DNA from: Escherichia coli
GTDB taxonomy: Bacteria; Pseudomonadota; Gammaproteobacteria; Enterobacterales; Enterobacteriaceae
Length of the DNA: 64,000 nucleotides
Direction: 5' to 3' (one strand)
Assembly: GCF_044324875.1 (NCBI RefSeq)
Contig: NZ_CP172186.1
How positions within the stretch are numbered: position 1 is the stretch's first letter; each line of letters opens with the position of its first letter. Position numbers and translations under genes: made by a program. Positions 6,540 to 28,079 of the stretch are shown here, piece by piece. The notes under the pieces are model-generated. The model worked only from the letters and a program-made list of their open reading frames with translations. It ran no database searches and was not told where the DNA came from.

Positions 6540-6956
6540 TTATCCTGCCCAGTCTTCCAGTACCAGTCCAGGCACCCGCTCAAACTCTCTCACATTATTC
6601 GTCACCAGTATTGCCCCGGTGGCGATGGCGTGCCCGGCGATCGCCGTGTCGTTCGGACCGATCGGCGTGCCGGCGAGGCGCAGCGCCACCTTAACCTCCG
6701 TGGTTGCATCCACCGCAGCGCGATCCCAGGGCAGGATGGCATCGAGACGGGCGCAGAACGCGTCAACCAGCTGCACGTGGCGTGGCGATGCCTTTGGACC
6801 GGTGGCGCCGAAGCGCATCTCGGAGTAGGTGATGGCCGAGACCACTATACGGTGACCGCGCAGCACCGCCTGCTCCAGATTCTTAAGCACTGCTTCAGGC
6901 TGCTCGCGCATGATGAACGAGCAGATGTTCGTGTCGAGCATATAGATCTTGTTCAC
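6540..6956 (-). CDS. vapC: VapC toxin (PIN-domain RNase), copy 1
   Basis: 138 aa MNKIYMLDTNICSFIM...; overlaps vapB by 4 nt. Confidence 0.9.
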   Translation of the reverse strand: MNKIYMLDTNICSFIMREQPEAVLKNLEQAVLRGHRIVVSAITYSEMRFGATGPKASPRHVQLVDAFCARLDAILPWDRAAVDATTEVKVALRLAGTPIGPNDTAIAGHAIATGAILVTNNVREFERVPGLVLEDWAG

Positions 6957-7183
6957 AGGTTAAATCGTCCTTCGTCGCAGACAACGTCCTCGCGTTCCGT
7001 CATAAAGCCCGGATCGGCCTTTTCTAGCTCCAGGAATGAGCTCCAGCTCGGGCGGAGGGGACGCAGAATGATTCTGTCCCCTTCCCGTACAATCTCCAGC
7101 TCACTCACCCCCTCAAAATCCAGATCGCGGGGCAGACGGATCGCGCGGTTATTGCCATTTTTGAAAATAGATACGGTTCTCAT
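6953..7183 (-). CDS. vapB: VapB antitoxin (AbrB/SpoVT-type), copy 1
   Basis: 76 aa MRTVSIFKNGNNRAIRLPRDLDFEG... Confidence 0.9.
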   Translation of the reverse strand: MRTVSIFKNGNNRAIRLPRDLDFEGVSELEIVREGDRIILRPLRPSWSSFLELEKADPGFMTEREDVVCDEGRFNL

Positions 7184-7222
7184 GTCTTCCTCCTGGCAAG
7201 ATGGCTTTTATATATGTTTAGT

Positions 7223-7301
7223 ATATGCAGATGTGATACATATGTATATGTTATAGATATGCAGATGTGTGAGATATGCGTATGCCTGTCATATGCAGAT
7301 G
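7223..7301. promoter_or_regulatory. Three direct ATATGCAGATG repeats at exact 34-bp spacing upstream of vapB copy 1
   Basis: Repeats start at 7223, 7257, 7291; an inverted copy (TATCTGCATG) follows at about 7324. Confidence 0.4.
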
Positions 7302-7708
7302 CCAAACATATGGATATGCATGGTATCTGCATGTTTCTCTCTTTTTTCACCGGGATCCGAAAAATATCAGTCACGGATCTTCCTCTCCCCCACACAACAC
7401 CACCTCCTGTAAGTACAACATGTAGTACTTCCTTCGGCTGCTCATGACACTATATGTTGTGTTATTTCCCTGACTTGTGATGCGCCACGCAGGGGCGGAA
7501 AACAGCGATATGATGATTTCCTCATCGTGTAGACTGGCCCCCTGAATCTCCAGACAACCAGTATCACTTATTTAAGTGATAGTCTTAATACTAGTTTTTA
7601 GACTAGTCATTGGAGAGCAGATGATTGATGTCTTAGGGTAAGCGTACAGCCTGAACCGTCTGGTCAGAATCTGACGAATTAGACAAAGTGGTGTCCACCA
7701 AATAAGTA

Positions 7709-8110
7709 GTGGGAACCAAAGTGTCAGATATGCAGAAAAATGTGACTCCCGGCAGGCGAAAAGGCTGCCCTAATTATCCTCCCGAATTTAAACAGCAGCT
7801 CGTTGCTGCCTCCTGTGAACCCGGGATATCCATCTCAAAACTTGCTCTTGAAAATGGCATTAACGCCAATCTGTTGTTCAAATGGCGACAACAATGGCGC
7901 GAGGGAAAGCTGCTATTACCTTCTTCAGAGAGCCCCCAGCTACTTCCTGTGACTCTCGATGCAGCTGCCGAACAGCCAGAATCGCTCGCAGAGGACCCGG
8001 AAACCCTCAGTATCAGCTGTGAGGTAACGTTCCGGCACGGGACGCTCCGCTTCAATGGCAATGTCAGCGAAAAGCTCCTGACTCTGCTGATACAGGAACT
8101 GAAGCGATGA
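7709..8110 (+). CDS. tnpA: IS66-family TnpA (orf1)
   Basis: 133 aa, HTH-containing. Confidence 0.9.
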   Translation: MGTKVSDMQKNVTPGRRKGCPNYPPEFKQQLVAASCEPGISISKLALENGINANLLFKWRQQWREGKLLLPSSESPQLLPVTLDAAAEQPESLAEDPETLSISCEVTFRHGTLRFNGNVSEKLLTLLIQELKR

Positions 8111-8454
8111 TCCCTTTACCTTCCGGGACCAAAATTTGGCTGGTTGCCGGTATCACCGATATGAGAAATGGCTTCAACGGCCTGGCTGCGAAAGTACAGA
8201 CGGCGCTGAAAGACGATCCCATGTCCGGCCATGTTTTCATTTTCCGGGGCCGCAGCGGCAGTCAGGTTAAACTGCTGTGGTCCACCGGTGACGGACTGTG
8301 CCTCCTGACCAAACGGCTGGAGCGTGGGCGCTTCGCCTGGCCGTCAGCCCGTGATGGCAAAGTGTTCCTTACACAGGCGCAGCTGGCGATGCTGCTGGAA
8401 GGTATCGACTGGCGACAGCCTAAGCGGCTGCTGACCTCCCTGACCATGCTGTAA
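8107..8454 (+). CDS. tnpB: IS66-family TnpB (orf2)
   Basis: 115 aa; overlaps tnpA stop. Confidence 0.9.
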
Positions 8455-8503
8455 ATCTCTTTATCCTGGTTGTCACAGAATAAGCCCGGTAAAATACGGG
8501 CTT

Positions 8504-10042
8504 ATGAACGACATCTCTTCTGACGACATCTTCCTGCTGAAACAGCGCCTGGCCGAACAGGAAGCGCTGATCCACGCCCTGCAGGAAAAGCTGAGCAACC
8601 GGGAGCGCGAAATAGACCATCTGCAGGCGCAGCTGGATAAACTCCGCCGGATGAACTTCGGCAGTCGTTCCGAAAAAGTCTCCCGCCGTATCGCACAAAT
8701 GGAAGCCGATCTGAACCAGCTTCAGAAAGAGAGCGATACGCTGACTGGTAGGGTGTATGACCCGGCAGTACAGCGTCCGTTGCGTCAGACCCGCATCCGT
8801 AAGCCGTTCCCTGAATCACTACCCCGTGACGAAAAGCGACTGTTGCCTGCGGCGCCGTGCTGCCCGAACTGCGGCGGTTCACTGAGCTATCTGGGCGAGG
8901 ATACCGCCGAACAGCTGGAGTTGATGCGTAGCGCCTTCCGGGTTATCCGGACGGTACGGGAAAAACATGCCTGTACTCAGTGCGATGCCATCGTGCAGGC
9001 ACCTGCACCTTCGCGGCCCATCGAGCGGGGTATCGCCGGACCGGGGCTGCTGGCCCGCGTGCTGACCTCGAAGTATGCAGAGCACACCCCGCTGTATCGC
9101 CAGTCAGAAATATACGGCCGGCAAGGTGTGGAGCTGAGCCGTTCACTGCTGTCGGGCTGGGTGGATGCATGCTGCCGGCTGCTGTCTCCGCTGGAAGAGG
9201 CGCTTCATGGCTATGTCATGACTGACGGCAAACTCCATGCCGATGATACCCCGGTCCAGGTACTGATGCCGGGTAATAAGAAGACGAAGACCGGGCGGTT
9301 GTGGGCGTATGTTCGTGATGACCGCAATGCCGGGTCAGCGTTGGCACCTGCAGTGTGGTTCGCTTACAGCCCGGACAGAAAAGGCATCCATCCGCAGACT
9401 CATCTTGCTTGCTTCAGCGGTGTGCTGCAAGCGGATGCGTACGCCGGGTTCAACGAGCTGTATCGCAATGGTGGGATAACGGAAGCTGCCTGCTGGGCTC
9501 ATGCCCGCCGAAAGATCCACGATGTGCACGTCCGCATCCCGTCAGCACTGACGGAAGAAGCCCTGGAGCAGATCGGTCAGTTGTACGCCATAGAGGCGGA
9601 TATAAGGGGAATGCCGGCAGAGCAGCGGCTTGCTGAACGTCAGCGAAAAACGAAACCGCTGTTGAAATCCCTGGAAAGCTGGTTGCGTGAAAAGATGAAG
9701 ACCCTGTCGCGACACTCAGAGTTGGCGAAGGCGTTCGCGTACGCACTTAACCAGTGGCCGGCACTGACGTACTATGCGAACGATGGCTGGGTGGAAATCG
9801 ACAACAACATCGCTGAAAATGCCCTGCGGGCGGTAAGTCTGGGTCGTAAAAACTTCCTGTTCTTCGGCTCTGGCCATGGTGGTGAGCGGGGAGCGCTACT
9901 GTACAGCCTGATAGGGACGTGCAAACTGAATGACGTGGATCCAGAAAGCTACCTTCGCCATGTGCTTGGCGTCATAGCAGACTGGCCGGTCAACCGGGTC
10001 AGCGAACTGCTTCCGTGGCGCATAGCACTGCCAGCTGAATAA
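8504..10042 (+). CDS. tnpC: IS66-family transposase TnpC
   Basis: 512 aa; N-terminal leucine zipper, CxxC...C zinc motif, DDE core. Confidence 0.95.
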
Positions 10043-10087
10043 CACATCCCCGTCAATACGGCCCTCGCTGTACGCTTACGTCTTAGG

Positions 10088-10436
10088 ACCGGAGAAACGC
10101 AGACGGCGTACCACACAGGAAAAGATCGCAATTGTTCAGCAGAGCTTTGAACCGGGGATGACGGTCTCCCTCGTTGCCCGGCAACATGGTGTAGCAGCCA
10201 GCCAGTTATTTCTCTGGCGTAAGCAATACCAGGAAGGAAGTCTTACTGCTGTCGCCGCCGGAGAACAGGTTGTTCCTGCCTCTGAACTTGCTGCCGCCAT
10301 GAAGCAGATTAAAGAACTCCAGCGCCTGCTCGGCAAGAAAACGATGGAAAATGAACTCCTCAAAGAAGCCGTTGAATATGGACGGGCAAAAAAGTGGATA
10401 GCGCACGCGCCCTTATTGCCCGGGGATGGGGAGTAA
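10088..10436 (+). pseudogene. insC: IS2 insC (OrfA), split by the IS66 insertion after codon 6
   Basis: ATGATTGATGTCTTAGGG at 7621-7638 encodes MIDVLG; remainder [18 protein letters not shown]... resumes at 10088. Confidence 0.85.
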
Positions 10437-11299
10437 GCTTAGTCAGCCGTTGTCTCCGGGTGTCGCGTGCGCAGTTGCACGTCATTCTCAGACGAACCGA
10501 TGACTGGATGGATGGCCGCCGCAGTCGTCACACTGATGATACGGATGTGCTTCTCCGTATACACCATGTTATCGGAGAGCTGCCAACGTATGGTTATCGT
10601 CGGGTATGGGCGCTGCTTCGCAGACAGGCAGAACTTGATGGTATGCCTGCGATCAATGCCAAACGTGTTTACCGGATCATGCGCCAGAATGCGCTGTTGC
10701 TTGAGCGAAAACCTGCTGTACCGCCATCGAAACGGGCACATACAGGCAGAGTGGCTGTGAAAGAAAGTAATCAGCGATGGTGCTCTGACGGGTTCGAGTT
10801 CCGCTGTGATAACGGAGAAAAACTGCGAGTCACGTTCGCGCTGGACTGCTGTGACCGTGAGGCACTGCACTGGGCGGTCACTACGGGCGGCTTCAACAGT
10901 GAAACAGTACAGGACGTCATGCTGGGAGCGGTGGAACGCCGCTTCGGCAACGAGCTTCCGGCGTCTCCAGTAGAGTGGCTGACGGATAATGGTTCATGCT
11001 ACCGGGCTAATGAAACACGGCAGTTTGCCCGGATGTTGGGGCTTGAACCGAAGAGCACGGCGGTGCGGAGTCCGGAGAGTAACGGCATAGCAGAGAGCTT
11101 CGTGAAAACGATAAAGCGTGACTACATCAGTGTCATGCCCAAACCAGACGGGTTAACGGCAGCAAAGAACCTTGCAGAGGCGTTCGAGCATTATAACGAA
11201 TGGCATCCGCATAGTGCACTGGGTTATCGCTCGCCACGGGAATATCTACGGCAGCAAGCCAGTAATGGGTTAAGTGATAACAGGTGTCTGGAAATATAG
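10394..11299 (+). CDS. insD: IS2 InsD (OrfB, DDE transposase)
   Basis: 301 aa [21 protein letters not shown]... Confidence 0.9.
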
Positions 11300-11563
11300 G
11301 GGCAAATCCAAAAAATACTTAGGAATAATTTATGTAAAACAGGTTGTCGTCTTCATGATTTAAACGCAGTACATATATATACTCTATAATAAATACAGGG
11401 AGTATCACGAGACGTCTGGATAAGAGGAATAACCAGAATAAATTGGTAAGGAATAAAGACACTTATTTCTATTGAGAAAAAACATTTATCCTGATGTGAT
11501 TAGTATCAATGAAATAATGTGCTTGTATGGTTGATAAAAATGCATCACTAAAGAAAAAACAGT

Positions 11564-14500
11564 ATGAATAAGAATATACGAATTTTACAGTTTCTGGTCA
11601 GTATACTTTATTCTGTGCAGTCTCATTTTTCTGGTGCGCAAACAATACAACTGAATGGTAATGGTATACCTGAAAGTATAACCAGGAGTATTACAGGTGT
11701 TGATGGAAACGCGGCGCTTAATATCAGCGTGCCGTATAAAACAAGTTATACTCAAAATATACTATCTGTTGAAAGCAGTATTAACATCAAAGGAGGAACA
11801 AGCAATACATCAATCGGTGGTGCAGGTGTCTACGGTGAAAACTTTACGCTAAATAATAATGGTAGTGTTTGGGGAGGAGATGGATATAATGGTGGAGTTG
11901 CTGTTAGTGGCAACAAAATATCTATAAACAATTACAGAAATGTATATGGGGGTAATGGTCTTGGTGGCTCAGGAAGTAGCGGAGGTGCAGGGTTAAGCGG
12001 GGATGATATTATAGTTGATAATTACAGAAGTATATACGGAGGTGATGATCTAGGTGGGACAGGTGGTTCCGGTGTAACCGGGAGCAATATTACAGTGCAT
12101 AATTCCGGAGGAATATGGGGTGGTAATGGCGTAAACGGTGGTGATGGTATTAATGGTAGTAATCTTTTCATTACTAACGACAACATGATATCTGGAGGAT
12201 ATGGAATAAAACAAGGGGGAGATGCTATTTCTGGAAATCAAATCACTTTGAATAATAACGGTATTGTTCAGGGGGGATATGGCCCCGACGGTAGTTGCTC
12301 TGTTTATGGAGAAGATATCCATATTAATAATCATGGTAATATTTCAGGCTCATATAATAGCCAAAAAGATGCTTATAACACATCAATAATTTTTTCTGCT
12401 GGGTATAATTCATTAGATATTTATTCAGATTCTGTGATTAATGGTGATATTAAACTAGCTAGTATACCTGTTAATGGTACAAATGAATTAATTATTAAAA
12501 ACATCAATAACGCAACAGCAATTAATGGTGGGCTAATGATTGGGAATGGCTCGTCTGTTTATCTGTCAAGCAAGAACATCATTTTTAACGGAAATATAAG
12601 TATTGATGAAGACGCATCTATGAACCTGTCTGCAGGAAATGCTAATGTTCACGCAAATACTATTACATTAAAAAGTGATTCATGGCTTAATATAGACACA
12701 TCAATTAAGAACTGGACTCAGGACTATTACACATTATTGTCGTCAGACACAGGTATCTCGATCGCTGATAATAGTCACATTGTACAATACAATGTATTAC
12801 TGACAGAAGGTGCTGAAAGTTATGTTTATACGTCTTTAAATGACGACGATAACAAACTGATATCCATGCTGAGATGGAATAATACAAAAGGGATGGGATA
12901 TGGAACCTTTAATATAGAAAAAGATGCCACTCTGAACATAGGAGTTTCTCTTTCCGATAATCTTTCACCTTTATTATATGATGGCTGGGACGGCAAAAGT
13001 CTGACAAAATCAGGTAATGGTACTCTTATACTTTCTGCAACAAACAACTATACAGGAAATACAGAGGTTAAATCTGGCGTATTAATTCTTGCTGCACCTG
13101 ATGCTCTTGGTCGGACTGAGTATTTATATTTATCCCGTGGCGCAGAACTGGATATGAATGGGTATCCTCAGACAATAAGCAAACTACTGACGGCTGCAGG
13201 CTCTGTGCTGAACATTCATGGCGGAAGCCTGATACTGAATAATGGAGGAGAATCTGCAGGTACTATTGCAGGGGATGGTTCTCTGAACATAAATGGGGGA
13301 ATGCTTGATATAACGGGTAATAATCGTAATTTTTCCGGTGTTTTTACCGTGAATAAGGGGGCTCAGTTGGCTGTATCCACGGCTGATAATCTGGGGACAG
13401 CCTTTGTTGATAACTATGGCACATTAACTCTGAACAGTACATCAGCATGGCAGCTTACCAACAATATCAGTGGTTATGGTAATGTTCGCAAGACGGGAGC
13501 AGGTGCACTGAACATTAGCGATAACGCAAAATGGACCGGGATGACAGATATTATTCAGGGGACATTGATTCTGGGTAACGCAGATTCACCGGTGATGCTC
13601 GGCAGTAACCAGGTCATTGTTGAAGAGCAGGGCAAACTCTCCGGGTTTGGGGGCGTTGCAGGAAATCTGAGCAATAGTGGTATAGTCGATCTCACTACAT
13701 ATATGCCGGGTAATATACTGACTGTCGGAGGGAATTACACTGGCAGAAATGGACTTATTCTCCTCCAGACAGAAACAGGTGGTGACAATTCGAAAACAGA
13801 TCGTCTGGTGATTAAAGGTAATGCCAGTGGCCGTACCCGTGTCGCTGTTACTCAGGCCGGTGGTACTGGTGCAGAGACACTTAATGGGATTGAAGTGATT
13901 CACGTCAGTGGCAATGCTGATAATGCTGAATTCATTCAGACGGAACGTATTACAGCCGGAGCTTATGATTACATACTGAAACGTGGTCAGGGGATTAACA
14001 GCACTAACTGGTATCTGATTAGCAGAAAAGACATTCCTGTACCACAACCTGAAGCTGTACCGGAAAACCATGATAATAATTTGCGTCCTGAGGCAGGTAG
14101 CTATGTTGCCAGTATTGCTGCTGCAAATAATCTGTTTGTAACGAATCTGTATGAACGACAGGGACAGGAGTTGTATATCAGCCACATGACAGGAGAAGAA
14201 AATGAAGCAGGTATCTGGATGTATAATAAAGGAAAACATAATCGCTGGCGTGACAACAGTAGTCAGCTGAGAACCCGGGGGAATAGCTACGTTGTGTTAA
14301 TAGGGGGAGATATAGCTCAGTGGAGCCTGAATGGTACCGATCGCTGGCATACAGGTATGATGGCTGGCTATGGTCATAATCATAACAGTACGAATGCCCT
14401 GAGCACCGGATACCATTCGGAAGGAAGAATGAATGGATACACTGCGGGTCTTTATGCAACATGGTATGCCAATGATGAAACACACAATGGTTCTTATCTT

Positions 14501-15207: not shown

Positions 15208-15534
15208 ATGACTAAAAATACTCGTTTTTCCCCCGAAGTCCGTCAACGGGCAGTTCGTATGGTTCTGGAAAGCCAGGGCGAATATGACTCACAATGGGCG
15301 GCAATTTGTTCCATTGCTCCAAAGATTGGCTGTACGCCAGAGACCCTGCGTGTCTGGGTTCGCCAGCATGAGCGGGATACCGGGGGCGGTGATGGTGGGC
15401 TCACCACCGCTGAACGTCAGCGTCTGAAAGAGCTGGAACGCGAAAATCGTGAACTGCGCCGCAGTAACGATATCCTTCGCCAGGCTTCCGCTTATTTTGC
15501 GAAGGCGGAGTTCGACCGCCTCTGGAAAAAATAA
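15208..15534 (+). CDS. IS3-family transposase OrfA
   Basis: 108 aa [26 protein letters not shown]... Confidence 0.9.
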
Positions 15535-15555
15535 TGCCACTGCTGGATAAGCTGC

Positions 15556-16401
15556 GTGAGCTGCAGTGAGCTGCATATTGCCCCGTCAACGTATTACCAC
15601 TGTCAGCAACAGCAGCATCATCCTGATAAACGCAGCGCCCGTGCGCAGCGTGATGACTGGCTGAAGAAAGAGATACAGCGCGTATACGATGAAAATCACC
15701 AGGTGTACGGTGTGCGTAAAGTCTGGCGTCAGTTGTTACGGGAAGGTATCAGAGTGGCCAGATGCACTGTGACACGTCTTATGGCGGTTATGGGTTTTGC
15801 CGATGTTCTCCGGGGTAAAAAGGTCCGCATTACCGTCAGCCGGAAAGCCGTTGCCGCAGGCGACCGCGTAAACCGTCATTTCGTGGCAGAACGTCCTGAC
15901 CAGCTGTGGGTGGCTGATTTTACTTACGTCAGCACATGGCAGGGCTTTGTTTATGTGGCGTTCATCATTGATGTGTTTGCCGGATACATCGTGGGATGGC
16001 GGGTCTCCTCGTCCATGGAAACGACATTCGTGCTGGATGCACTGGAGCAGGCGTTGTGGGCCCGTCGTCCATCTGGCACCATCCATCACAGCGATAAAGG
16101 CTCTCAGTATGTATCGCTGGCCTACACGCAGCGGCTTAAGGAAGTCGGATTACTGGCATCAACAGGGAGCACAGGCGACTCGTATGACAACGCGATGGCG
16201 GAGAGCATCAATGGTCTTTACAAGGCGGAGGTAATACACCGTAAGAGCTGGAAAAACCGGACAGAAGTGGAGCTGGCTACACTCACGTGGGTGGACTGGT
16301 ATAACAATCGACGATTGCTGGAAAGGCTGGGCCATACTCCCCCGGCAGAAGCAGAAAAAGCTTATTATGCTTCCATCGGAAACAATGATCTGGCAGCCTG
16401 A
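15556..16401 (+). CDS. IS3-family transposase OrfB (DDE; made as OrfAB fusion by -1 frameshift)
   Basis: 281 aa; tracked start is an alternative codon downstream of the frameshift window. Confidence 0.85.
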   Translation: MSCSELHIAPSTYYHCQQQQHHPDKRSARAQRDDWLKKEIQRVYDENHQVYGVRKVWRQLLREGIRVARCTVTRLMAVMGFADVLRGKKVRITVSRKAVAAGDRVNRHFVAERPDQLWVADFTYVSTWQGFVYVAFIIDVFAGYIVGWRVSSSMETTFVLDALEQALWARRPSGTIHHSDKGSQYVSLAYTQRLKEVGLLASTGSTGDSYDNAMAESINGLYKAEVIHRKSWKNRTEVELATLTWVDWYNNRRLLERLGHTPPAEAEKAYYASIGNNDLAA

Positions 16402-19536: not shown

Positions 19537-20534
19537 CAGTTCAGCCCCATTTTTCTCAGCTGCTCGCCCACCTGCTCCGCGCCGTAAAGCGTGCGAATGG
19601 TCGGATTCATCGCCTGACCGTCCATGACCACGATATGGCCTTTTTTCACCGCCTCCAGCTGGCTGACGGCGGGATCGCTTTTGAGGAATTTGATCTTCTC
19701 CTCGGCTTTATCCAGCGCCCAGCGGTTACGATCCAGGCTGGCGACCACGATCACATCCGGGTTGGCGGCAATAATGCTCTCCCAGCTCACCGTGGGCCAC
19801 TCGGTTTCGGAGGTAATCGCATTATGTCCGCCCAGCACGCTGGCGATAAATCCGGAGGCGCTGTTTTTGCCGCCGACATAGGCATCGGCCGAAGGTGAGG
19901 CGCTGGAGAACCAGAAGACGAAGGAGAGATCCTTTTTGCTTTTACCAAACTCCTGGCGCAGGTCGGCTTCACGTTTTTTGAAATCGGCAATCAGCGCCTG
20001 ACCACGATCTTCGACGTTGAAAATGCGGGAAAAATCGCTAATTTCCTGATACAGCCAGGTCATATCCCACAGCTTTTGCCGGCTGCCGTACATATCGCCG
20101 GTGGCCTTTTTGGTGGCGCACACCCCCGGTGAGACGTAGCTGTTCACGCCGACGGTGGCGAGATCTTCACGCCTGGCGACTTTGCTTTCCGGCCCCAGCA
20201 GCAGCGGCAACTGGGCGGGAACGAAATCAGGATTTTGCGCCAGCACCGATTCCAGGCTCGGAATTTCCACCGTCAAGGTTTTAATCTTCGCGTTTTGCTC
20301 AGCCAGCTGCGGTAAAACGCTGGTCGGCCAGAAGGCGCTGGCGACCACCTGCTTTTGCAGCCCGAGCAGCAGCAGAATTTCGACCGTATTTTGCCCCAGC
20401 GCGACCACGCGCTCCGGCGGCCGGGTGAAGGTCTCCTGATAGCCGCAGTTTTCAATCGTCAGGGGGTAGGTTGTTGCCAGCGCGGAACTGACGGCGGTGA
20501 ACATCAAGCCTAACGCGCAAAGGACCTTCTTCAT
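19536..20534 (-). CDS. Periplasmic substrate-binding protein (iron-siderophore/heme/B12 class)
   Basis: 332 aa with N-terminal signal peptide MKKVLCALGLMFTAVSSALA; first gene of a four-gene operon. Confidence 0.8.
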   Translation of the reverse strand: MKKVLCALGLMFTAVSSALATTYPLTIENCGYQETFTRPPERVVALGQNTVEILLLLGLQKQVVASAFWPTSVLPQLAEQNAKIKTLTVEIPSLESVLAQNPDFVPAQLPLLLGPESKVARREDLATVGVNSYVSPGVCATKKATGDMYGSRQKLWDMTWLYQEISDFSRIFNVEDRGQALIADFKKREADLRQEFGKSKKDLSFVFWFSSASPSADAYVGGKNSASGFIASVLGGHNAITSETEWPTVSWESIIAANPDVIVVASLDRNRWALDKAEEKIKFLKSDPAVSQLEAVKKGHIVVMDGQAMNPTIRTLYGAEQVGEQLRKMGLN

Positions 20535-20585
20535 TAAACGCTATCCTTGTAAACAGGCGAGTGGATGACCAGCAAATGGGAGTAA

Positions 20586-20607
20586 TGCAAATGAAACTCA
20601 TTATTAT
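20586..20607. promoter_or_regulatory. Fur-box-like site upstream of the ABC importer operon
   Basis: GCAAATGAAACTCATTATTATC; 14 of 19 matches to GATAATGATAATCATTATC, 50-70 bp upstream of the start codon. Confidence 0.45.
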
Positions 20608-20647
20608 CGCGGGGTTTTATACAATGCCATATTTACAGTGTCAATGT

Positions 20648-20850
20648 GTTCTTGCCCCCTTATTTCCAGACAGGGGTTGTATCTTAAGTTAATGTTACCC
20701 GCTGACGTCGATATTCTCGCGGAGAGCGATAACCCAACGCACTGTGCGGATGGTTTTCATTGTAATGTTCGATCGCCACTGCAAGATTATGCAATGCCGT
20801 TCTTACATTCGGTTTCGGCATGAACGCGATGTAGTCTTCCTTGGGGTCCG
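20648..20850 (-). mobile_element. Remnant of an IS2-related element (right end with IR)
   Basis: TTGCCCCCTTATTTCCAGACA ... GAGCGATAACCCAACGCACTGTGCGGATGG resembles the IS2 right end at 61063-61260 at roughly 75-80 percent identity. Confidence 0.5.
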
Positions 20851-20888
20851 CCTGGAAAACGGAAAATATCCCACGCTAAGACTATTTT

Positions 20889-21479
20889 CTATACAGTAAC
20901 AGTTTGCTGTTTCGCTCTAACTCTCAGAATTGTTTGCCGTGTGGTTCGGAATTCCCTGGCAATAGCACTTATACTTGCCCCAGACTTAATGTGTTCGAGT
21001 ACCTTCTGTTTTTGTTCTTCATTTAATACCGGTGGGCGACCAAAACGTTTTCCTGCATCCCGTGCTCTTGCTATCCCTGAATAAGTTCGTTCAAGTAAAA
21101 GATCTCGTTCAAATTCAGCGACCGCTGAAATCACTTGCATTGTCATTTTTCCTGCCGGACTGGTCAGATCAACACCACCTAATGCCAGGCAATGTACCCT
21201 GATGCCAGATTCGGTCAGTTGCTCCACTGTTTTCCTGATATCCATTGCATTACGACCGAGGCGATCCAGTTTTGTGACTATCAATACATCGCCACTTTCC
21301 AGACGATCAAGCAACCGGTTAAAACCTGGACGTTCACTGGCTGCTACTGATCCACTAATTTGTTCTTCGATTATTCGTTGGGGTCTGACGTTAAAACCCG
21401 CGCTTTCGATTTCCCGACGTTGATTTTCGGTCGTCTGTTCCAGAGTGGAAACCCGACAATAGGCAAAAATTCGAGACAT
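20889..21479 (-). CDS. Serine recombinase (resolvase) with C-terminal HTH
   Basis: 196 aa [15 protein letters not shown]... (catalytic Ser), ...[11 protein letters not shown]... Confidence 0.9.
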
Positions 21480-21521
21480 AGTGAGATCTTCTGTACGAAA
21501 TGGGTGTACATATTATAATGC

Positions 21522-21594
21522 ATGTCCGAAAGTAATTTCGCTGACTTTCGGATATATCTGTTTAACAATGTCCGAAACCGGTCGATTTCGGACA
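21522..21594. promoter_or_regulatory. res-like site: palindromic subsites upstream of the resolvase gene
   Basis: TGTCCGAAA-N8-TTTCGGACA perfect dyad at 21569-21594 plus TGTCCGAAAG...CTTTCGGATA at 21522-21555. Confidence 0.5.
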
Positions 21595-21979
21595 CCAAAA
21601 CCACTGTTGTCCCGCCATTCTGGCGATTCCTGAAAGCCCTTTGGCTAAAAAATAGTCTTAACATGGTTTATTTTCCGAATTCCAAACTGACCCCGCTAAC
21701 GCGGAGATACGTCCCGACTTCGGGTAAACCCTCGTCGGGACCACTCCGACCGCGCACAGAAGCTCTCTCATGGCTGAAAGCGGGTATGGCTTAGCAGGGC
21801 TGGGGATGGGTAAGGTGAAATCTATCAATCAGTACCGGCTTACGCCGGGCTTCGGCGGTTTTACTCCTGTGCCATATGCAACAACGGAGTGCCGCCTTAC
21901 ATGCGCTGACGCGCATTATTTGCCTTGTTCCGTCTGAAACTAATCACTATGATTAAATATGATTAACAACTAATCGGGT

Positions 21980-22264
21980 ATGCAAATGAAAAACAATACC
22001 GCACAGGCAACAAAAGTCATTACCGCGCATGTGCCATTACCAATGGCTGATAAAGTCGACCAGATGGCCGCCAGACTGGAACGCTCCCGGGGCTGGGTTA
22101 TCAAACAGGCGCTTTCTGCATGGCTTGCCCAGGAGGAGGAGCGTAATCGCCTGACGCTGGAAGCCCTGGACGATGTGAAATCCGGACAGGTTATCGACCA
22201 TCAGGCTGTACAGGCCTGGGCGGACAGCCTCAGTACTGACAATCCGTTACCGGTGCCACGCTGA
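21980..22264 (+). CDS. RHH (CopG/ParD-like) antitoxin
   Basis: 94 aa; precedes and abuts a RelE/ParE-like toxin gene. Confidence 0.75.
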   Translation: MQMKNNTAQATKVITAHVPLPMADKVDQMAARLERSRGWVIKQALSAWLAQEEERNRLTLEALDDVKSGQVIDHQAVQAWADSLSTDNPLPVPR

Positions 22265-22539
22265 TGGAACTGAAGTGGACCAGTAAGGCGCTTTCTGATT
22301 TGGCGCGGTTATATGATTTTCTGGTGCTGGCCAGTAAACCTGCGGCCACCAGAACGGTGCAGTCCCTGACACAGGCACCGGTCATTCTGTTAACTCATCC
22401 ACGTATGGGAGAACAGTTGTTTCAGTTTGAACCCAGGGAGGTCAGACGGATTTTTGCTGGCGAGTACGAAATCCGTTACGAACTTAATGGCCAGACTATT
22501 TATGTATTGCGCCTGTGGCACACACGAGAAAACAGGTAG
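22264..22539 (+). CDS. RelE/ParE-family toxin
   Basis: 91 aa MELKWTSKALSDLARLYDFL...IYVLRLWHTRENR. Confidence 0.8.
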   Translation: MELKWTSKALSDLARLYDFLVLASKPAATRTVQSLTQAPVILLTHPRMGEQLFQFEPREVRRIFAGEYEIRYELNGQTIYVLRLWHTRENR

Positions 22540-22644
22540 ATTGTGTGTGGGGACAACTTAACATAGCCTGCAGATATTAATTCTGGAACATTATTATCAG
22601 GCCAGATATTTTTCATTCCATTAAATAATCTTGTAGGAGATAAA

Positions 22645-22884
22645 ATGAATTACGATGAAATAACGAAAATTACCGCTGAACGTATTAGCGACTACATGAC
22701 CGAAGCAGTTAATACAGACTCTATAGCCGTTGCGGAAATGTTTCATAACGCTGCATGGGGAGTGCGAACATTGTGGTTTGAACTCGTCACAAAAATAGAT
22801 ATGGATATACATAAAAAGAACAGGTATGCGAGTTATGATCTTAGAAGGAAAATCGAAATACAGCATGAAGAGTTTCACGTATAG
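22645..22884 (+). CDS. Hypothetical small protein (low GC)
   Basis: 79 aa ORF with GGAG RBS (AGGAGATAAAATG); no recognisable motif. Confidence 0.3.
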
Positions 22885-23046
22885 GAAATTGAAAAACTAA
22901 GCGATACCACTGTCCGCGTCTTATGCCTCGTGCGGTAAGCTGTTTTTCACATCACGCCGGTGTTTTTTCTCTCTGCGTGGTCGGTTTTTATACTGCGGAT
23001 GGGGTTTTTTATCCTTTCCCCGGATTGCTGACACACTTACCCTGTA

Positions 23047-24339
23047 TCAGGCCGGCACATACCTCAGCAGACTGATATCCCGCGCGTTTTTCTTCAGCCC
23101 TGATACATTCAGCCCCGCAAGGGCCCGGCGGTATACCATCCGGCCGCCACACAGCACGCATTCGAACGGGTCACGACTCAGGAACTGTTTCACCATTTGT
23201 GCATAGCACACTTTCGCCACCGGTTCCGGTTTATCCATCCCCAGAGCTCGGTACACCTGCGGCAGCTTCTCTCCACACCCCCGGTTGGCAAGGAACCCGA
23301 AGTACCTCACCATCTTAAAAAACTTCTCCGGGATGTGCTGTTTCATCCTCGCGACCAGCTCACGCTGCGTCAGCGTTTCCGTCGCTGTCTCTCCCGTTTT
23401 GTGGTCCAGGTAACGGAAGCTCAGGCTCGCCCCTCCGTTGTAATGTGCCAGCCGGGAAGCCGCTATTGGTGGCTTCTTCAGATAACGACCCAGGTAGCGT
23501 GCCGTATTCCGCCCGCCGGCCGTCTTCTTCGACATGTACACATGCCAGTATTTTCCGCCGGCTTTCAGCACCAGGCTTCTCCACTGTGATTCCGTCGTGA
23601 TATGTGACAACGACTCCGGCATCGCCATCCCCTCTGACCACGCTTTCAGAAGCAACTGCCGTATATTCCACATCCACCGCGAACGCATTGCGTCTTTCAG
23701 GAAGCTCAGCTTTTTCCACTGACCGTGCTTATTCAGCCCCCCGCAGGTTACTGACACATGTACATGCGGATGCCAGTTGAGACGACGGCCATATGTGTGG
23801 ATGGCGCAGAAGATACCGGGTTCCAGCCCCCGTTTTCGGGCGGCATACAGCAGCCAACGGTTGCTTTCGAACACCGGCCACAGCGTGTCCGGCAGGGTGA
23901 AGACCAGGTGTACCCAGTCGCAGTCAGGAAGACGATTCAGCTGTGTCGCTGTCCACAGGTCTGTGGCCTTTTTTCCGCAGGACGGGCAGGCACGGCTGCC
24001 ACATGAGTTAGTGACGTATCTGACGTGGGGACAGTCAGGTTTATCGCAGTTGTATTCCTTCACGCCCAGTATCCGCGTGCCGCAGGCCAGCATTTTGGTG
24101 ACAGCCTCAACCTCGATATCGCGCAGACCGCCCGCATCCAGGAAGGACGTCCAGCACTGGTTGGCTGTGAACAGGCGTTTCAGCGGACGGGGCTGAAAAT
24201 CACCACCACTTCGGGTCATCCATCCTGCACGCTCCATCTGATAATGTTCTGACAGGTAAAAATAATATCCTGCATGATTTGTGTGCTCATGATTTCTGAT
24301 AATATCAGATATTGTTTTATCATCAATGATGAAAACCAT
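23047..24339 (-). CDS. IS91-family rolling-circle transposase (HUH, Y2)
   Basis: N-terminal Zn-finger CPHVRYVTNSCGSRACPSCG; HUH-like HTYGRRLNWHPHVHV; element ends not delimited. Confidence 0.85.
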   Translation of the reverse strand: MVFIIDDKTISDIIRNHEHTNHAGYYFYLSEHYQMERAGWMTRSGGDFQPRPLKRLFTANQCWTSFLDAGGLRDIEVEAVTKMLACGTRILGVKEYNCDKPDCPHVRYVTNSCGSRACPSCGKKATDLWTATQLNRLPDCDWVHLVFTLPDTLWPVFESNRWLLYAARKRGLEPGIFCAIHTYGRRLNWHPHVHVSVTCGGLNKHGQWKKLSFLKDAMRSRWMWNIRQLLLKAWSEGMAMPESLSHITTESQWRSLVLKAGGKYWHVYMSKKTAGGRNTARYLGRYLKKPPIAASRLAHYNGGASLSFRYLDHKTGETATETLTQRELVARMKQHIPEKFFKMVRYFGFLANRGCGEKLPQVYRALGMDKPEPVAKVCYAQMVKQFLSRDPFECVLCGGRMVYRRALAGLNVSGLKKNARDISLLRYVPA

Positions 24340-24576
24340 ATCTGATATGATTTTATATATATTTCTTAATTATCATATCATTTGCGTCTTTTCTGCCGCG
24401 CAGATCCGGTTTCCGGCTAAGTCGGATCGACCTAATCTTTGTTTCTGATATGAACACCTCGGAGAGGTGTAAGCAATGGTATAAACGAAATGTATTATGT
24501 ATCTGCATCACAGCATGCGGGCACATTTTGCGGAAGGATATGAATCCCCCCGGAATAACTGGCAAAGGACAGATAA

Positions 24577-26715
24577 ATGGACATTGAAATACGCCACTGC
24601 AATAACATCGTACGAGCACATATCACCCTCACTGCCGATAAACTGAACATTAAGTTTGCGCCAAATGGTACTGGAAAAAGTACGCTGTCACGGGCCATAA
24701 GCTGTGCGGCGCGGGACGACATTCAGGGACTACAGGCACTGATGCCCTTCCGGCTGCGCGGAGAAAACCCCGATAGCACCGGGCCCATTGTCATCGGTGC
24801 TGACGGGATTGGGGACGTGATGTGCTTCAACGAGGAGTACGTCAGTCAGTTTACGTTCCAACCGGACGAGCTCATCAGTGATAGCTTTAATATTCTTATC
24901 CGCAATCAAGCCCATGCGGAAAGAGAGCGTGAAATAGAAGAAATGACGCAAAAGATCCGGGCTGTTTTCACGGATCACACTGAGCTGAACTCTCTGATAG
25001 ACCATCTACAGGAACTCAGTAATGCTTTCAGATCAACCAGTTCCGGGATTTCACGTTCTTCAACCGGCATGAGAGGTCTGTCAGGCGGAAATAAAATACA
25101 CCACATTCCGGCTGGTCTTGAGAACTATCAACCCTACATCCGCAGTGAACGCCGCGTGGAATGGATTGACTGGCAGACAAAGGGACTCGAGTTTTCGCCC
25201 CTTTCGGATGGCTGCTGTCCGTTCTGTACCGGTGATATCACGGGAAAGGAAGCACAAATTCGCCAAGTCAGAGAGGAATACGATAAATCCACCATTAAAA
25301 ACCTGACCGCTATCATCAGACTGGTGGAAAACCTCGGTAATTACCTGACGGAGAGCGCCAGAGAACGCCTTCTGGCCATTACTATGCTTCAGAACGGTCC
25401 GGAAGCCGAACATATCGAGTACCTAGTGGCGTTGAAACGCCAGACCGATACGCTGACAGAGAAACTCACTGCGCTGAGAGGCCTGAATGTTTTCAGCCTG
25501 CAGGAACAGCAGAACGTTCGGGAGGTGCTCACTGCCAGGTTGATTGACCTGCAGTTCTTCCCTGATCTGCAATCCGAACTCATGCAGGGGATCACCGACA
25601 GACTGAACGCGGCCCTTATGGACCTGATAAACCTTGCCGGACCGCTGCAGGGAAAAATTAACCGGCACCGGGACAGCATGATCCGGCTGATCGCACAGCA
25701 CAAAACAAACATCAATAATTTCCTCACTTATGCAGGCTATAAATACAGGGTGGATATAGCCGGCGAGGGAGAGCAGAGAAAACTCAGGCTACGACACATA
25801 GATTTTGACGGGTACGTCAGCGGCGGTAGCCAGCATCTCAGCTATGGAGAACGGAACGCCTTTGCGATTGTGTTATTCATGTATGAATGCCTGTCAAAAA
25901 ACCCGGGACTGATTATCCTTGATGATCCCATATCTTCTTTTGATAAAAACAAGAAGTTTGCCATTCTTGAAATGCTGTTCAGACGTGCAAGTGGTGAATG
26001 CCTGAAGAACCGGACTGTACTTATGCTGACGCATGACGTGGAGCCTGTGATTGACACGCTGAAGTCAGTCAGAAGGTTGTTCAGTAATCAGGTGACCGCC
26101 TCCTGCCTGCGCCTGTCTGCTGGAGTCATAGAAGAATTACCTGTTAACGACGGCGATATCATGACATTCATGCAGATCTGCAAATCCATCACCGCGTCAG
26201 CAGACTGTGAGGAGATCATTAAGCTCATCTATCTTCGTCGCTACTTTGAAATCGTTGACGAACGTGGTGATGCTTATCAGCTTCTATCCAATCTATTCCA
26301 TCGACGCGTCGTCCCGCTGGATTATCGCGAGCCTGCCGCTGCGGGCTCGGGCTATCCCAAAATGGCTCCTGAGAAAATTCAGCAGGCCTTGCGGGATATC
26401 CGGGAGTATGTGGACAGTTTTGATTACCCGCGACTTCAGGCTCTCGTCAGCAGCCCAGATGAAATAAAAAACCTGTACCGTCGCTGTCGTAACGGCTATG
26501 AAAAACTGCAGGTATTCCGTTTACTGGAACTGGATCAGGACCATCCGGTAATACGAAAATTCGTTAACGAAACGTACCACATTGAAAATGAGTTCATCTG
26601 TCAACTAGATCCGTCCAGATTCGATCTCATCCCGGAGTACGTGATTATGGAATGTGACAAGCTCATCGCCCTGCCACCGGCAGCAAACCAGAGCTCGGTT
26701 GCCCGTATCGCTTGA
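24577..26715 (+). CDS. Solitary ABC-type ATPase with long coiled-coil insert containing a CxxC motif and an unassigned C-terminal domain (RloC/Rad50-like architecture); candidate defence protein
   Basis: 712 aa; Walker A FAPNGTGKST (aa 27-36); CPFC at about aa 209; signature-like LSYGER, Walker B LIILDDP, H-loop LMLTHD; last 220 aa without known motif. Confidence 0.6.
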   Translation: MDIEIRHCNNIVRAHITLTADKLNIKFAPNGTGKSTLSRAISCAARDDIQGLQALMPFRLRGENPDSTGPIVIGADGIGDVMCFNEEYVSQFTFQPDELISDSFNILIRNQAHAEREREIEEMTQKIRAVFTDHTELNSLIDHLQELSNAFRSTSSGISRSSTGMRGLSGGNKIHHIPAGLENYQPYIRSERRVEWIDWQTKGLEFSPLSDGCCPFCTGDITGKEAQIRQVREEYDKSTIKNLTAIIRLVENLGNYLTESARERLLAITMLQNGPEAEHIEYLVALKRQTDTLTEKLTALRGLNVFSLQEQQNVREVLTARLIDLQFFPDLQSELMQGITDRLNAALMDLINLAGPLQGKINRHRDSMIRLIAQHKTNINNFLTYAGYKYRVDIAGEGEQRKLRLRHIDFDGYVSGGSQHLSYGERNAFAIVLFMYECLSKNPGLIILDDPISSFDKNKKFAILEMLFRRASGECLKNRTVLMLTHDVEPVIDTLKSVRRLFSNQVTASCLRLSAGVIEELPVNDGDIMTFMQICKSITASADCEEIIKLIYLRRYFEIVDERGDAYQLLSNLFHRRVVPLDYREPAAAGSGYPKMAPEKIQQALRDIREYVDSFDYPRLQALVSSPDEIKNLYRRCRNGYEKLQVFRLLELDQDHPVIRKFVNETYHIENEFICQLDPSRFDLIPEYVIMECDKLIALPPAANQSSVARIA

Positions 26716-26816
26716 GCCACTGTTTTTGCCGCCGGAAGATAGGCTTTAGCTCCCTGATAGTCTGATCTTCGAAGATACCCTACAGTTTAGGACCGCTTAC
26801 TGTAGATATCTGTTAA

Positions 26817-26838
26817 AACAGCCCGTATACGGGCTGTT
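26817..26838. terminator. Hairpin between the ATPase gene and vapC copy 2
   Basis: ACAGCCCGTA/TACGGGCTGT perfect palindrome; T-run on the minus strand side. Confidence 0.5.
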
Positions 26839-26876
26839 TCTTGGTGCCCTTATCTCCTGACTTTGAAAAGAGTGTC

Positions 26877-27293
26877 TTACTTCACCCAGTCTTCCAGCAC
26901 CAGGTCAGGCACTCGCTCAAATTCTCTTGTATTATTCGTTACCAGTATCGCCCCGGCGGCGATGGCGTGCCCGGCAATCGCCGTGTCGTTCGGGCCGATC
27001 GGCGTCCCGGCCAGCCGCAGTGCCACTTTAATCTTCGTGGTGGCGTCTACTGCGGCGCGATCCCAGGGCAGGATGGCATCGAGGCGGGCGCAGAATTCAT
27101 CGACCAGTTGGACGTGACGTGGTGAGGCCTTTGGGCCGGTAGCCCCGAAGCGCATTTCAGAGTAGGTGATGGCCGAGACCACTATACGGTGGCCGCGTAG
27201 CACCGCCTGCTCCAGACGCTTCAGGACGGCTTCTGGCTGTTCACGCATGATGAACGAGCAGATACAGGTATCAAGCATATAAGTCTTGTTCAC
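26877..27293 (-). CDS. vapC: VapC toxin (PIN domain), copy 2 (divergent paralog)
   Basis: 138 aa; about 93 percent identical to copy 1. Confidence 0.9.
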   Translation of the reverse strand: MNKTYMLDTCICSFIMREQPEAVLKRLEQAVLRGHRIVVSAITYSEMRFGATGPKASPRHVQLVDEFCARLDAILPWDRAAVDATTKIKVALRLAGTPIGPNDTAIAGHAIAAGAILVTNNTREFERVPDLVLEDWVK

Positions 27294-27520
27294 AGGTTAA
27301 ATCGCCCTTCGTCGCTGACAACATCCTCGCGCTCCGCCATAAAATCTGGATCGGCTTTTTCGTACTCTAGGAATGATCCCCAGGTTGGCCGGACGGGGCG
27401 CAGGATGATGCTGTCCCCTTCCCGGACGATCTCGAGCTCGCTCACCCCCTCAAAATCCAGATCACGAGGCAGACGGATGGCGCGGTTGTTGCCATTTTTA
27501 AATATCGATACGGTTCTCAT
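27290..27520 (-). CDS. vapB: VapB antitoxin, copy 2
   Basis: 76 aa; paralog of 6953-7183. Confidence 0.9.
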   Translation of the reverse strand: MRTVSIFKNGNNRAIRLPRDLDFEGVSELEIVREGDSIILRPVRPTWGSFLEYEKADPDFMAEREDVVSDEGRFNL

Positions 27521-28079
27521 GTTCTTTCTCTCCCGAGCATATGGATATGTGAAACATATCCGGAATATTCAAAGCACCGGGTGTGTGCATATGTTTAGTA
27601 TAGGCAGATGTGTGGCATATGTATAGCGGTAGCATATGTAGATGCCAGGCATATGTTTAGCATATCCCTATTTCTTTCTTTTTTATCGGAGATCCGAAAA
27701 AAGGTTGTTCAGGATCTTCCTCTCCCCCCACACAACGCCACCTCCTGTAAGCACAACATGTGGTGCCGGATTCAGCTGCTGATGACACTATATGTTGTGT
27801 CATCTCCCTGACCTGTGATGCGTCGCGCAGGGGCGGAAAACAGCGATATGATGATTTCCTCAGCGTGGTACACTTCCGGAAAGTTGTGATATTCCGGAAA
27901 GTCGGATCTGACGGAAACGGCTCTCCGGTAATTTAACGGCGTGGTTATATGGATGCTTGTTATCATGGTGATGATGATAACGGCATGATGTTATCAGACG
28001 GCGTGACGGTAAGGGCAGTGATGATGGATGACGTTATCGCATGACCGTCCCTGCCCGGAAAAGAAAAAAGGAGTCACCC

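Follow-up and report, generated by a model that had tools for sequence, protein, structure and literature searches.

Tandem 17-bp repeats upstream of two vapBC loci on an Escherichia coli plasmid: probable iterated VapB operators beside rfsF/crs-type cores

The 64,000-nucleotide stretch of Escherichia coli DNA analyzed here (contig NZ_CP172186.1; hereafter the window) comes from an IncK2/Z-type plasmid and carries two vapBC toxin-antitoxin pairs, each preceded by short direct repeats. Are these repeats iterons bound by a replication protein, as a sequence-only reading of the window had proposed, or do they belong to the toxin-antitoxin genes? We consider it probable (roughly 70%) that they are tandem 17-bp copies of VapB's own operator, situated beside rfsF/crs-type cores, and not iterons. 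Because the repeats are most likely VapB operator copies, the layout is most likely an ordinary, largely known one and not a replication element.

Two vapBC alleles on one plasmid

Both gene pairs are encoded on the minus strand; vapB is immediately upstream of vapC, and the two genes overlap by 4 nt. In copy 1, VapC1 (6540..6956) is a VagD-like PIN toxin of 138 aa (Pfam PIN, 7.6e-15), and VapB1 (6953..7183) is a VagC-like AbrB/MazE-type antitoxin of 76 aa (Pfam MazE_antitoxin) that scores 88 bits against NCBIfam TA_anti_VapB (cutoff, 60). Copy 2 has open reading frames with Pfam matches for a PIN toxin, VapC2 (26877..27293; 138 aa), and an antitoxin, VapB2 (27290..27520; 76 aa). Pfam and NCBIfam together identify both pairs as MazE/VapB antitoxin plus PIN/VapC toxin. 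Compared with the PDB, VapC1 matches the tRNA(fMet)-specific endonuclease VapC (1.3e-28; homology only), and by homology to such structures a vagCD-type VapC would be an initiator-tRNA-cleaving toxin. The PIN acidic residues D8, E46, D103, and E124 align to the catalytic positions of 9H6A and 6IFC, and none of the 11 differences between the copies falls on these four positions. The equivalents in the enteric VapC we take to be D7, E42, D98, and E119.

Much of what the sequence-only reading had described was borne out. It gave the copies as about 93% identical at the protein level (we count 127/136, or 93%, for VapC and 68/76, or 89%, for VapB), as sharing about 350 bp upstream (~346 bp, reaching from the start of vapB as far as 7529 in copy 1 and ~27866 in copy 2), and as differing downstream, where the sequence past vapC is indeed unrelated. 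With a dS of ~0.65 between the copies and each of them a widespread allele, a recent duplication inside the replicon was rejected. Purifying selection on both loci is indicated by a dN/dS of 0.08 to 0.09. With intact open reading frames, conserved catalytic residues, and dN/dS below 0.1, the possibility that one copy is a pseudogene was also discarded. These are two old, intact vagCD-type alleles. The earlier reading had also raised the question of cross-regulation. This is plausible, because the DNA-binding N-terminus (residues 1 to 36) is identical in VapB1 and VapB2.

Geometry of the repeat arrays

The array of copy 1 occupies 7206..7335 (no strand) and was delimited by TRF, spacing analysis, a unit scan, and motif enrichment. 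On the vapB-sense strand its unit is CAT(A/C)TG-CATATG-N5. Six strong units at 7217-7318 are flanked at either end by degenerate ones, giving 6 to 7 units in total; TRF reports a period of 17 with 5.3 copies at 7223-7312, and a direct-repeat search returned successive spacings of 17, 17, 17, and 17. The array of copy 2 (27577..27671; no strand), supported by the direct-repeat search, the unit scan, and motif matches, has four strong units at 27577-27644 followed by degenerate ones, or 4 to 5 in total. TRF reported no repeat in this array, which is shorter and too degenerate for the program, and its units were counted by the consensus-unit scan, which found a chain of 6 in copy 1 and a chain of 4 in copy 2. 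Each 17-bp unit can be described as two CATATG-like, internally palindromic hexamers with 5 bp between them (11 bp center to center), and between neighboring units the hexamer spacing is 6 bp.

The earlier reading had reported three repeats 34 bp apart in copy 1 and two degenerate ones in copy 2. The positions are right, as ATATGCAGATG occurs exactly at 7223, 7257, and 7291 and with one mismatch at 27600 and 27634, but the basic period is 17 bp, and 34 bp is a super-period, every second unit being the better conserved one. Across the whole window, ATATGCAGATG with at most one mismatch is found 8 times where 1.36 would be expected, a count that none of 100 shuffles reached; chance or low complexity was thereby rejected as the source of the repeats. 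A structured RNA was rejected as well, with no Rfam family above threshold in the shared upstream segment. Copy 2 has an extra operator-like unit at 27538..27561 (no strand), recognized by its sequence and inverted repeat in the predicted leader on the promoter-distal side: a CATATG overlapping the palindrome GGATATG-N5-CATATCC, which is present in the Salmonella Dublin virulence plasmid and absent from copy 1.

Association of the repeats with vapB

We counted the dyad CATATG-N5-CAT[AC]TG in 56 genome loci encoding VapB relatives, taking 200 bp as the upstream zone. Exact matches numbered 29 in the 11.2 kb upstream of vapB and 2 in the 561 kb elsewhere, an enrichment of ~700-fold. Both matches outside the zone belong to one locus (L016), where they lie beyond the 200 bp of its first vapB, and a second vapB follows ~1.7 kb downstream on the contig. 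The dyad is also found at chromosomal vapB homologs of Rhodoblastus, Shewanella, Spongiibacter, and Chitinilyticum, where there is no resD or core, and hexamers 6 bp apart lie upstream of vapB in Azoarcus and one betaproteobacterium. Conversely, four plasmids that have the core and resD without vapBC (F, two IncI-gamma/K1 plasmids, and one IncF plasmid) contain no unit within 260 bp. At loci whose core was lost or has recombined, the array stays with vapBC.

A promoter scan places predicted minus-strand promoters of the form TATACA-17-TATACT at 7220..7248 for vapBC1, inside the two vapB-proximal units, and at 27597..27625 for vapBC2. This hexamer pair is conserved upstream of vapB in ~30 other loci, and more distant vapB homologs have a predicted TTGACA-17-TATGCT promoter with its -10 within the first hexamer. 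The suggestion that the repeats form part of the toxin-antitoxin control region is supported. Since the units track vapB, overlap a conserved promoter, and are absent from vapBC-less ResD/rfsF plasmids, the repeats are best read as putative iterated VapB operators.

A structural precedent is available for such operators. The window VapB matches the VapB chain of Rickettsia felis VapBC2 (3ZVK) and 6IFM. When R. felis VapBC2 is bound to DNA, every VapB dimer recognizes a subsite that is palindromic in itself, with the half-site A(A/G)TAT, and the octamer bridges two operator subsites (PMC3326315). By the same logic, one AbrB-type VapB dimer would sit on each hexamer of the plasmid units, and a VapB-VapC hetero-oligomer would span both hexamers of a unit. 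Occupied vapB-proximal units would then repress vapBC, because the predicted -35 (TATACA) and -10 (TATACT) sit inside them, and further units would lengthen the repressor-binding platform upstream. For hexamers only 6 bp apart, simultaneous occupancy may be impossible. What the sequences show directly is the genes, the geometry of the repeats, their link to vapB and separation from resD, and the breakpoints in the core; that VapB binds the repeats, represses vapBC, and does so across the two copies is what we infer. A search of the searchable literature found no VagC binding or expression studies on these repeats.

Recombination cores next to the arrays

Each array directly adjoins an rfsF/crs-type core for a ResD/Rsd tyrosine recombinase, and both copies align with F and the S. 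Dublin plasmid over the core and its flank. Core 1 (7353..7380; no strand) consists of GGATCCG, a 14-nt spacer, and CGGATCT and aligns with the F pifC-ccdA region (rfsF/oriV1) and with the S. Dublin plasmid; core 2 (27690..27717; no strand), identified by sequence and alignments, has AGATCCG, a 14-nt spacer, and AGGATCT. Their spacers differ at 8 of 14 positions. We tabulated core arms and spacers for 22 loci. In other plasmids, homology to copy 1 breaks at 7369/7370, inside the core 1 spacer, and one comparison locus (L064) is identical to copy 1 up to 7369. Such breakpoints are indirect evidence that the site may recombine, and they agree with the documented role of rfsF as a junction for gene-set exchange in IncI1 and IncR plasmids (PMC8004404, PMC9412624). 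The rfsF of F is an established ResD substrate (PMC4398462).

The two copies differ in what follows the core. In copy 1 there follows an inverted-repeat-rich resD-side segment (7381..7529, plus strand; inverted repeats at 7415-7460), a homolog of the F oriV1/rfsF region, which the left end of IS2 (7530..7638, plus strand) cuts off at 7529. ISEc8 (7639-10079) splits this IS2 with an 8-bp duplication, GTCTTAGG; the IS2 TnpB (713 bits) lies at 10394-11299, and no continuation of the rfsF segment follows the IS2 right end (~11310). What is left of copy 1 is an orphan made up of vapBC, the array, the core, and a further 150 bp; IS2 has taken away its recombinase side. Far more plasmid records match the truncated segment than match the array segment; among at least 5,000 records, most of the matches listed cover the resD-side segment only. 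In copy 2 the corresponding segment (27718..27883, plus strand) is complete and ~89% identical to that of copy 1. It is followed on the plus strand by a conserved 137-aa protein (28080..28493), directly upstream of resD, which is annotated in pLH50-c-A and IncI-gamma/K1 plasmids and has no Pfam or NCBIfam match. The ResD/Rsd-type tyrosine recombinase itself (28495..29280, plus strand; 261 aa; Pfam Phage_integrase, 2.5e-18) is annotated as a site-specific integrase in pLH50-c-A and shares 88% identity with the integrase beside ccdAB in the S. Dublin plasmid. A recombinase gene thus adjoins the site in copy 2 only, and copy 2 lies at the rfsF-resD-parA junction of the plasmid's own backbone, on its variable side. 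The sequence-only reading was silent on the core beside each copy and on the truncation of copy 1 by insertion sequences.

Alternative readings

The earlier reading had proposed that the repeats are iteron-like and perhaps bound by a Rep protein; a related possibility is another array for a Rep or partition protein at an origin, a copy-control locus, or a centromere. The tandem direct repeats, with their period of 17 bp, are within the ~17 to 22 bp typical of iterons, the adjoining segment has its homolog in the F oriV1 region, and a ParA-family gene lies ~2 kb past resD in the context of copy 2. However, an origin with an adjacent Rep gene was not found: the gene neighborhoods of both copies were searched for rep and contained none, and no par gene is near copy 1. 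Moreover, the units are missing from the F oriV1/rfsF region itself and accompany vapB even into chromosomes. We therefore abandoned the iteron, Rep-binding, and centromere readings, which are scarcely credible. More can be said for the array as an accessory part of the crs/rfsF site, bound by ResD, the 137-aa protein, or a host factor, with its nearness to vapBC incidental; it would confer resolution selectivity in much the way that the accessory sequences of cer or res sites do. Across diverse loci the array starts at a roughly constant 20 to 24 bp from the vapB-side core arm, and no array of at least four units was seen away from a core or half-core (n = 20 versus 37; Mann-Whitney p = 1e-8, shared ancestry ignored). 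With its eight 17-bp units, the S. Dublin plasmid fits the 1991 definition of the pSDL2 crs, which reportedly included eight incomplete 17-bp repeats. Still, F and the three other unit-free plasmids have a homologous core, flank, and resD, and the rfsF of F is a ResD substrate nonetheless. Units stand upstream of vapB in chromosomes that have neither resD nor core, the 137-aa protein is present in array-less IncI-gamma/K1 plasmids, and in ResD only the integrase catalytic domain was detected by Pfam and NCBIfam, with no separate arm-binding domain. An accessory role of this kind is accordingly unlikely.

A narrower version of operator function is that only one or two promoter-proximal units are operators and that the extra plasmid units are neutral products of slippage or unequal exchange. 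Chromosomal and distant homologs make do with 0 to 3 units, unit number ranges from 1 to 7 among close relatives with distal units more degenerate, and about two of the units seen in the S. Dublin plasmid have been lost from copy 2. Because the promoter hexamers are embedded in the proximal units, the conservation of these units could itself partly reflect the promoter and not an operator. On the other hand, distal units retain the hexamer consensus, and exact copies of the 11-mer reappear at 7257 and 7291, which suggests maintenance; long arrays also persist across many diverged lineages. We regard neutrality of the distal units as rather unlikely. Even for iterated VapB operators along the whole array, the restriction of arrays of at least four units to the neighborhood of a core or half-core is not predicted by a pure operator model and is the sole unexplained feature. 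It could be accommodated if a VapB-VapC nucleoprotein filament on the array acted as an architectural or accessory element for, or a barrier to, ResD recombination at the adjacent core or, conversely, if multimer state or core recombination fed into toxin-antitoxin expression. Such coupling is speculative and distinctly improbable; if true, it would mechanistically join two plasmid-stability systems.

Significance and comparison with known systems

The discovery value is small. vagCD modules, multiple vagCD copies per plasmid, rfsF-resD junctions, and reportedly also the 17-bp repeats as a part of crs are all in the literature already. What we add is a modest, testable point, the assignment of the array to vapB: the "17-bp repeats of crs" resemble VapB operators in tandem, and it is vapBC, not the recombinase, that they accompany. 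A candidate operator motif, CATATG-N5-CATMTG, follows for a toxin-antitoxin family that thousands of resistance and virulence plasmids carry. Co-resident vagCD alleles would further be expected to cross-repress, because their DNA-binding domains are identical, which bears on plasmid addiction and curing strategies.

The S. Dublin virulence plasmid is similar to the present loci in many respects. It carries this gene pair too (its VapB and VapC are 87% and 91% identical, respectively, to those of copy 1) in the order vapC-vapB, followed by a 17-bp array, an AGATCCG-N14-CGGATCT core, an inverted-repeat-rich segment, and a recombinase operon. It differs in having ccdAB and two small open reading frames between the site and the recombinase, where copy 2 has only the 137-aa open reading frame and copy 1 has no recombinase at all, and its eight 17-bp units compare with 6 to 7 and 4 to 5 here. 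The rfsF-ResD systems of F and IncI1 resemble our loci through the core and ~160 bp of the resD-side segment, which align with the F pifC-ccdA intergenic region, whereas across the core F and the IncI-gamma/K1 examples lack both vapBC and 17-bp units.

Among the operators of known structure, those of R. felis VapBC2 (3ZVK) and Salmonella VapBC (6IFM) share with the putative operator an AbrB-type VapB and short palindromic AT-rich subsites; in those systems each subsite takes a dimer and a hetero-octamer is the bridge (PMC3326315), as would be the case here. Both are single imperfect palindromes of ~27 bp, while here the dyad is repeated head to tail 4 to 8 times. A multi-site toxin-antitoxin operator is found in the ccdAB operon of F, where the operator is bound by chains of CcdA and CcdB. 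By analogy only, it resembles the arrays described here in having many close short sites over more than 100 bp and in being a neighbor of rfsF/oriV1, although on the opposite side; the antitoxin fold, ribbon-helix-helix, and the motif are different.

Two divergent vagCD-type vapBC pairs under purifying selection

Both vapBC pairs lie on the minus strand, where the sequence-only reading had placed them: VapC1 (6540-6956) with VapB1 (6953-7183) in copy 1, and VapC2 (26877-27293) with VapB2 (27290-27520) in copy 2. By Pfam and NCBIfam, the toxins are PIN-domain VapC proteins and the antitoxins are MazE/AbrB-type VapB proteins. The roughly 93% protein identity claimed earlier holds for VapC (127 of 136 residues, 93%) but is 89% for VapB (68 of 76). 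The two copies align from the vapC stop codon to about 346 bp upstream of vapB, ending at 7529 and about 27866, and are unrelated downstream of vapC, in agreement with the approximately 350 bp of common upstream sequence that had been described. Among solved structures, VapC comes nearest to the tRNA(fMet)-specific VapC toxins of enteric bacteria (E ~1e-28); VapC1 and VapC2 both retain counterparts of the four acidic catalytic residues, which the 11 VapC differences leave untouched.

Comparison of the copies gave dN/dS values of 0.09 (vapB) and 0.08 (vapC) at a dS of about 0.65, which indicates two old alleles, each under purifying selection. A recent duplication is ruled out by this dS. A gene paired with a pseudogene, an outcome that the sequence-only reading had considered, is ruled out by the dN/dS of 0.08 to 0.09 and the kept catalytic residues.

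Arrays of 17-bp units upstream of vapB

The motif search recovered the three exact repeats reported for copy 1 (ATATGCAGATG at 7223, 7257, and 7291) and the two degenerate ones of copy 2 (one mismatch, 27600 and 27634); with at most one mismatch, the window holds 8 matches to this motif against 1.36 expected, and none of the shuffled sequences attained 8. Their supposed 34-bp periodicity gave way to a basic period of 17 bp, with TRF finding 5.3 copies of period 17 and a separate repeat search finding spacings of 17, 17, 17, and 17. On the vapB-sense strand the unit is CAT(A/C)TG-CATATG-N5, and its palindromic hexamers follow one another at alternating 6 and 11 bp (hexamer + 5 + hexamer = 17). 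The copy 1 array has six strong units (7217-7318) plus degenerate units at either end, and the copy 2 array has four strong units (27577-27644) plus some degenerate ones, with a separate palindromic unit, GGATATG-N5-CATATCC, near the ribosome-binding site (27543-27561). The dyad CATATG-N5-CATMTG, with at most one mismatch, has 13 matches in the window against 0.44 expected, 12 of them within the two array regions.

Copy 2-type alleles, including those of S. Dublin and Klebsiella plasmids, have about 40 extra bp between array and ribosome-binding site, a segment that copy 1-type alleles lack. Within it lies the perfect palindrome GGATATG-N5-CATATCC, which puts an operator-like unit (window 27538-27561; about 23535-23560 in the comparison locus L002) into the predicted 5' leader of copy 2-type alleles.

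Plasmid context of the two copies

Plasmids of the IncK2/Z type from E. coli match the window; both vapBC copies are found on pCh101, and pLH50-c-A is a 99.9% match over the copy 2 region. Each array has on its right an rfsF/crs-type recombination core, an inverted repeat reading GGATCCG-N14-CGGATCT in core 1 (7353-7380) and AGATCCG-N14-AGGATCT in core 2 (27690-27717), followed by a segment of about 150 bp dense in inverted repeats. Both parts can be aligned to the sequence between pifC and ccdA in plasmid F (rfsF/oriV1) and to the virulence plasmid of Salmonella Dublin. Beyond the segment, copy 2 continues with a 137-amino-acid (aa) open reading frame (ORF), a 261-aa tyrosine recombinase (Pfam Phage_integrase; 88% identity to the integrase of the S. 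Dublin plasmid), and parA, which is the IncI/K backbone arrangement beside rfsF. The 137-aa ORF (28080-28493), directly upstream of the recombinase gene resD, has no match in Pfam or NCBIfam; its position is kept in the IncI-gamma/K1 plasmids L061 and L062, and its product might assist the recombinase as an accessory factor.

The copy 1 segment reaches only to 7529 and there gives way to IS2 (left end at 7530; TnpB, 10394-11299; right end near 11310). ISEc8 (7639-10079) splits IS2, with the 8-bp target duplication GTCTTAGG at 7631-7638 and 10080-10087, and the rfsF segment is not resumed beyond the IS2 right end. An IS66-family transposase fragment (5845-6498) lies on the vapC side. The truncation at IS2 and the fragment opposite make copy 1 an orphan fragment of about 1 kb amid insertion-sequence debris.

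The accessory region near copy 1 also encodes a 187-aa pentapeptide-repeat protein (4546-5109), annotated likewise in pCh101. Just downstream of vapC2 is a gene for a 712-aa protein (24577-26715) with an AAA_13 domain and weak AbiEii-type AAA_21 similarity, which may be a defense or abortive-infection ATPase. Rfam gathering-threshold matches comprise a group II intron catalytic domain (41461-41581) and three ALIL pseudoknots, which are IS3-family frameshift signals (2625-2741, 15489-15575, and 59190-59276).

The units as predicted VapB operators

The comparison drew on a species-level genome collection, from which 56 loci with genes for VapB relatives were taken. In these loci, the 11.2 kb just upstream of vapB holds 29 exact dyads (CATATG-N5-CAT[AC]TG) and the other 561 kb holds two, both in L016, outside the 200-bp zone upstream of its first vapB copy. 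This locus, a Citrobacter freundii contig, has two tandem vapBC copies about 1.7 kb apart (3088-5388). VapB relatives with 58 to 75% identity in Rhodoblastus, Shewanella, Chitinilyticum, and Spongiibacter have neither resD nor a core within 6 kb, and one or two dyads are found just upstream of their ribosome-binding sites; in Azoarcus and a betaproteobacterium this hexamer pair recurs with 6 bp between its members. A predicted promoter, TATACA-17-TATACT, is located upstream of both window vapB copies and recurs inside units in about 30 loci, while in the distant homologs a consensus TTGACA stands 17 bp from TATGCT, which is part of the first hexamer. No units were found within 260 bp of the core in four plasmids that have core, flank, and resD without vapBC (F, two IncI-gamma/K1, and one IncF). 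Together, these observations indicate that the units move with vapBC rather than with the recombinase or a replicon function; since they do so, the proposal that the repeats are iterons bound by a Rep protein is rejected.

The interpretation with the most support takes each 17-bp unit for a VapB operator dyad. In Rickettsia felis, the VapBC2-DNA structure shows every AbrB-type VapB dimer reading a short AT-rich subsite that is itself palindromic (half-site A(A/G)TAT), and the VapB4-VapC4 octamer spans two subsites in adjacent major grooves (PMC3326315). The window VapB matches the R. felis VapBC2 antitoxin and DNA-bound Salmonella VapB, and we infer that it binds the units; the searchable literature yielded no experimental study of the VagC operator. 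Binding of VapB at the units closest to vapB would cover the -35 and -10 elements embedded there, giving the usual autorepression, and further units would lengthen the binding platform upstream. VapB1 and VapB2 are identical over residues 1 to 36, with all eight differences in the C-terminal, toxin-binding half, so either VapB should recognize both arrays. Cross-regulation between the copies, as the sequence-only reading had suggested, is thus reasonable at the DNA level. That reading is therefore partly supported, in its link of the repeats to operator function and in cross-regulation, while its iteron or Rep-binding part falls away.

Long arrays and the recombination core

Every array of at least four units that was seen has a core or half-core no more than about 250 bp away. 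The unit chain has a median of 4 to 5 and a maximum of 7 in loci with a core or half-core (n = 20), versus a maximum of 3 in those without (n = 37; Mann-Whitney P = 1e-8; P = 4e-5 for VapB of at least 80% identity). The distance from array start to core arm is a fairly constant 20 to 24 bp. Because the loci lack phylogenetic independence, common ancestry may account for the whole pattern. A functional coupling of a VapBC-coated array to recombination by ResD would also suit it, but we consider such coupling improbable.

BLAST matches of the copy 1 upstream region to plasmids stop at query position 186 or start at 185-187, which corresponds to window 7369/7370, within the core 1 spacer. The copy 1 allele recurs, its array unchanged, in plasmid pDA51106_120 (L064); identity runs to ...GATCCGAAAAATATCA and the sequence is unrelated beyond. 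The vapB-side arm alone, with the T-run before it, is retained in seven genome loci. In IncI1 and IncR plasmids, rfsF is a site of gene-set exchange, and in the IncR backbone vagCD adjoins rfsF-resD (PMC8004404, PMC9412624). The breakpoints in the core spacer fit this published exchange. A distance of 20.3 kb separates cores 1 and 2, which have direct orientation on a plasmid that encodes ResD. Unlike spacers generally prevent productive exchange by tyrosine recombinases, and because these two differ at 8 of 14 positions, the mismatch probably prevents ResD-mediated deletion between the cores.

Comparison with known loci

This arrangement is shared by the virulence plasmid of S. Dublin, in which eight 17-bp units separate vapB from the core, past which lie ccdAB, two ORFs, and an integrase. 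Krause and Guiney (1991), a paper cited in PMC5065971, reportedly described the crs of pSDL2 as consisting of eight incomplete direct repeats of 17 bp and, after them, an inverted-repeat-rich segment homologous to F oriV1. Two identical vagDC copies are present on one plasmid, pEC958 (PMC4398462), and many records have more than one copy (at least 5,775 places in at least 5,000 records among the matches listed). The locus is therefore of a known kind; the reading of the "crs repeats" as vapBC operator units may not have been stated before.
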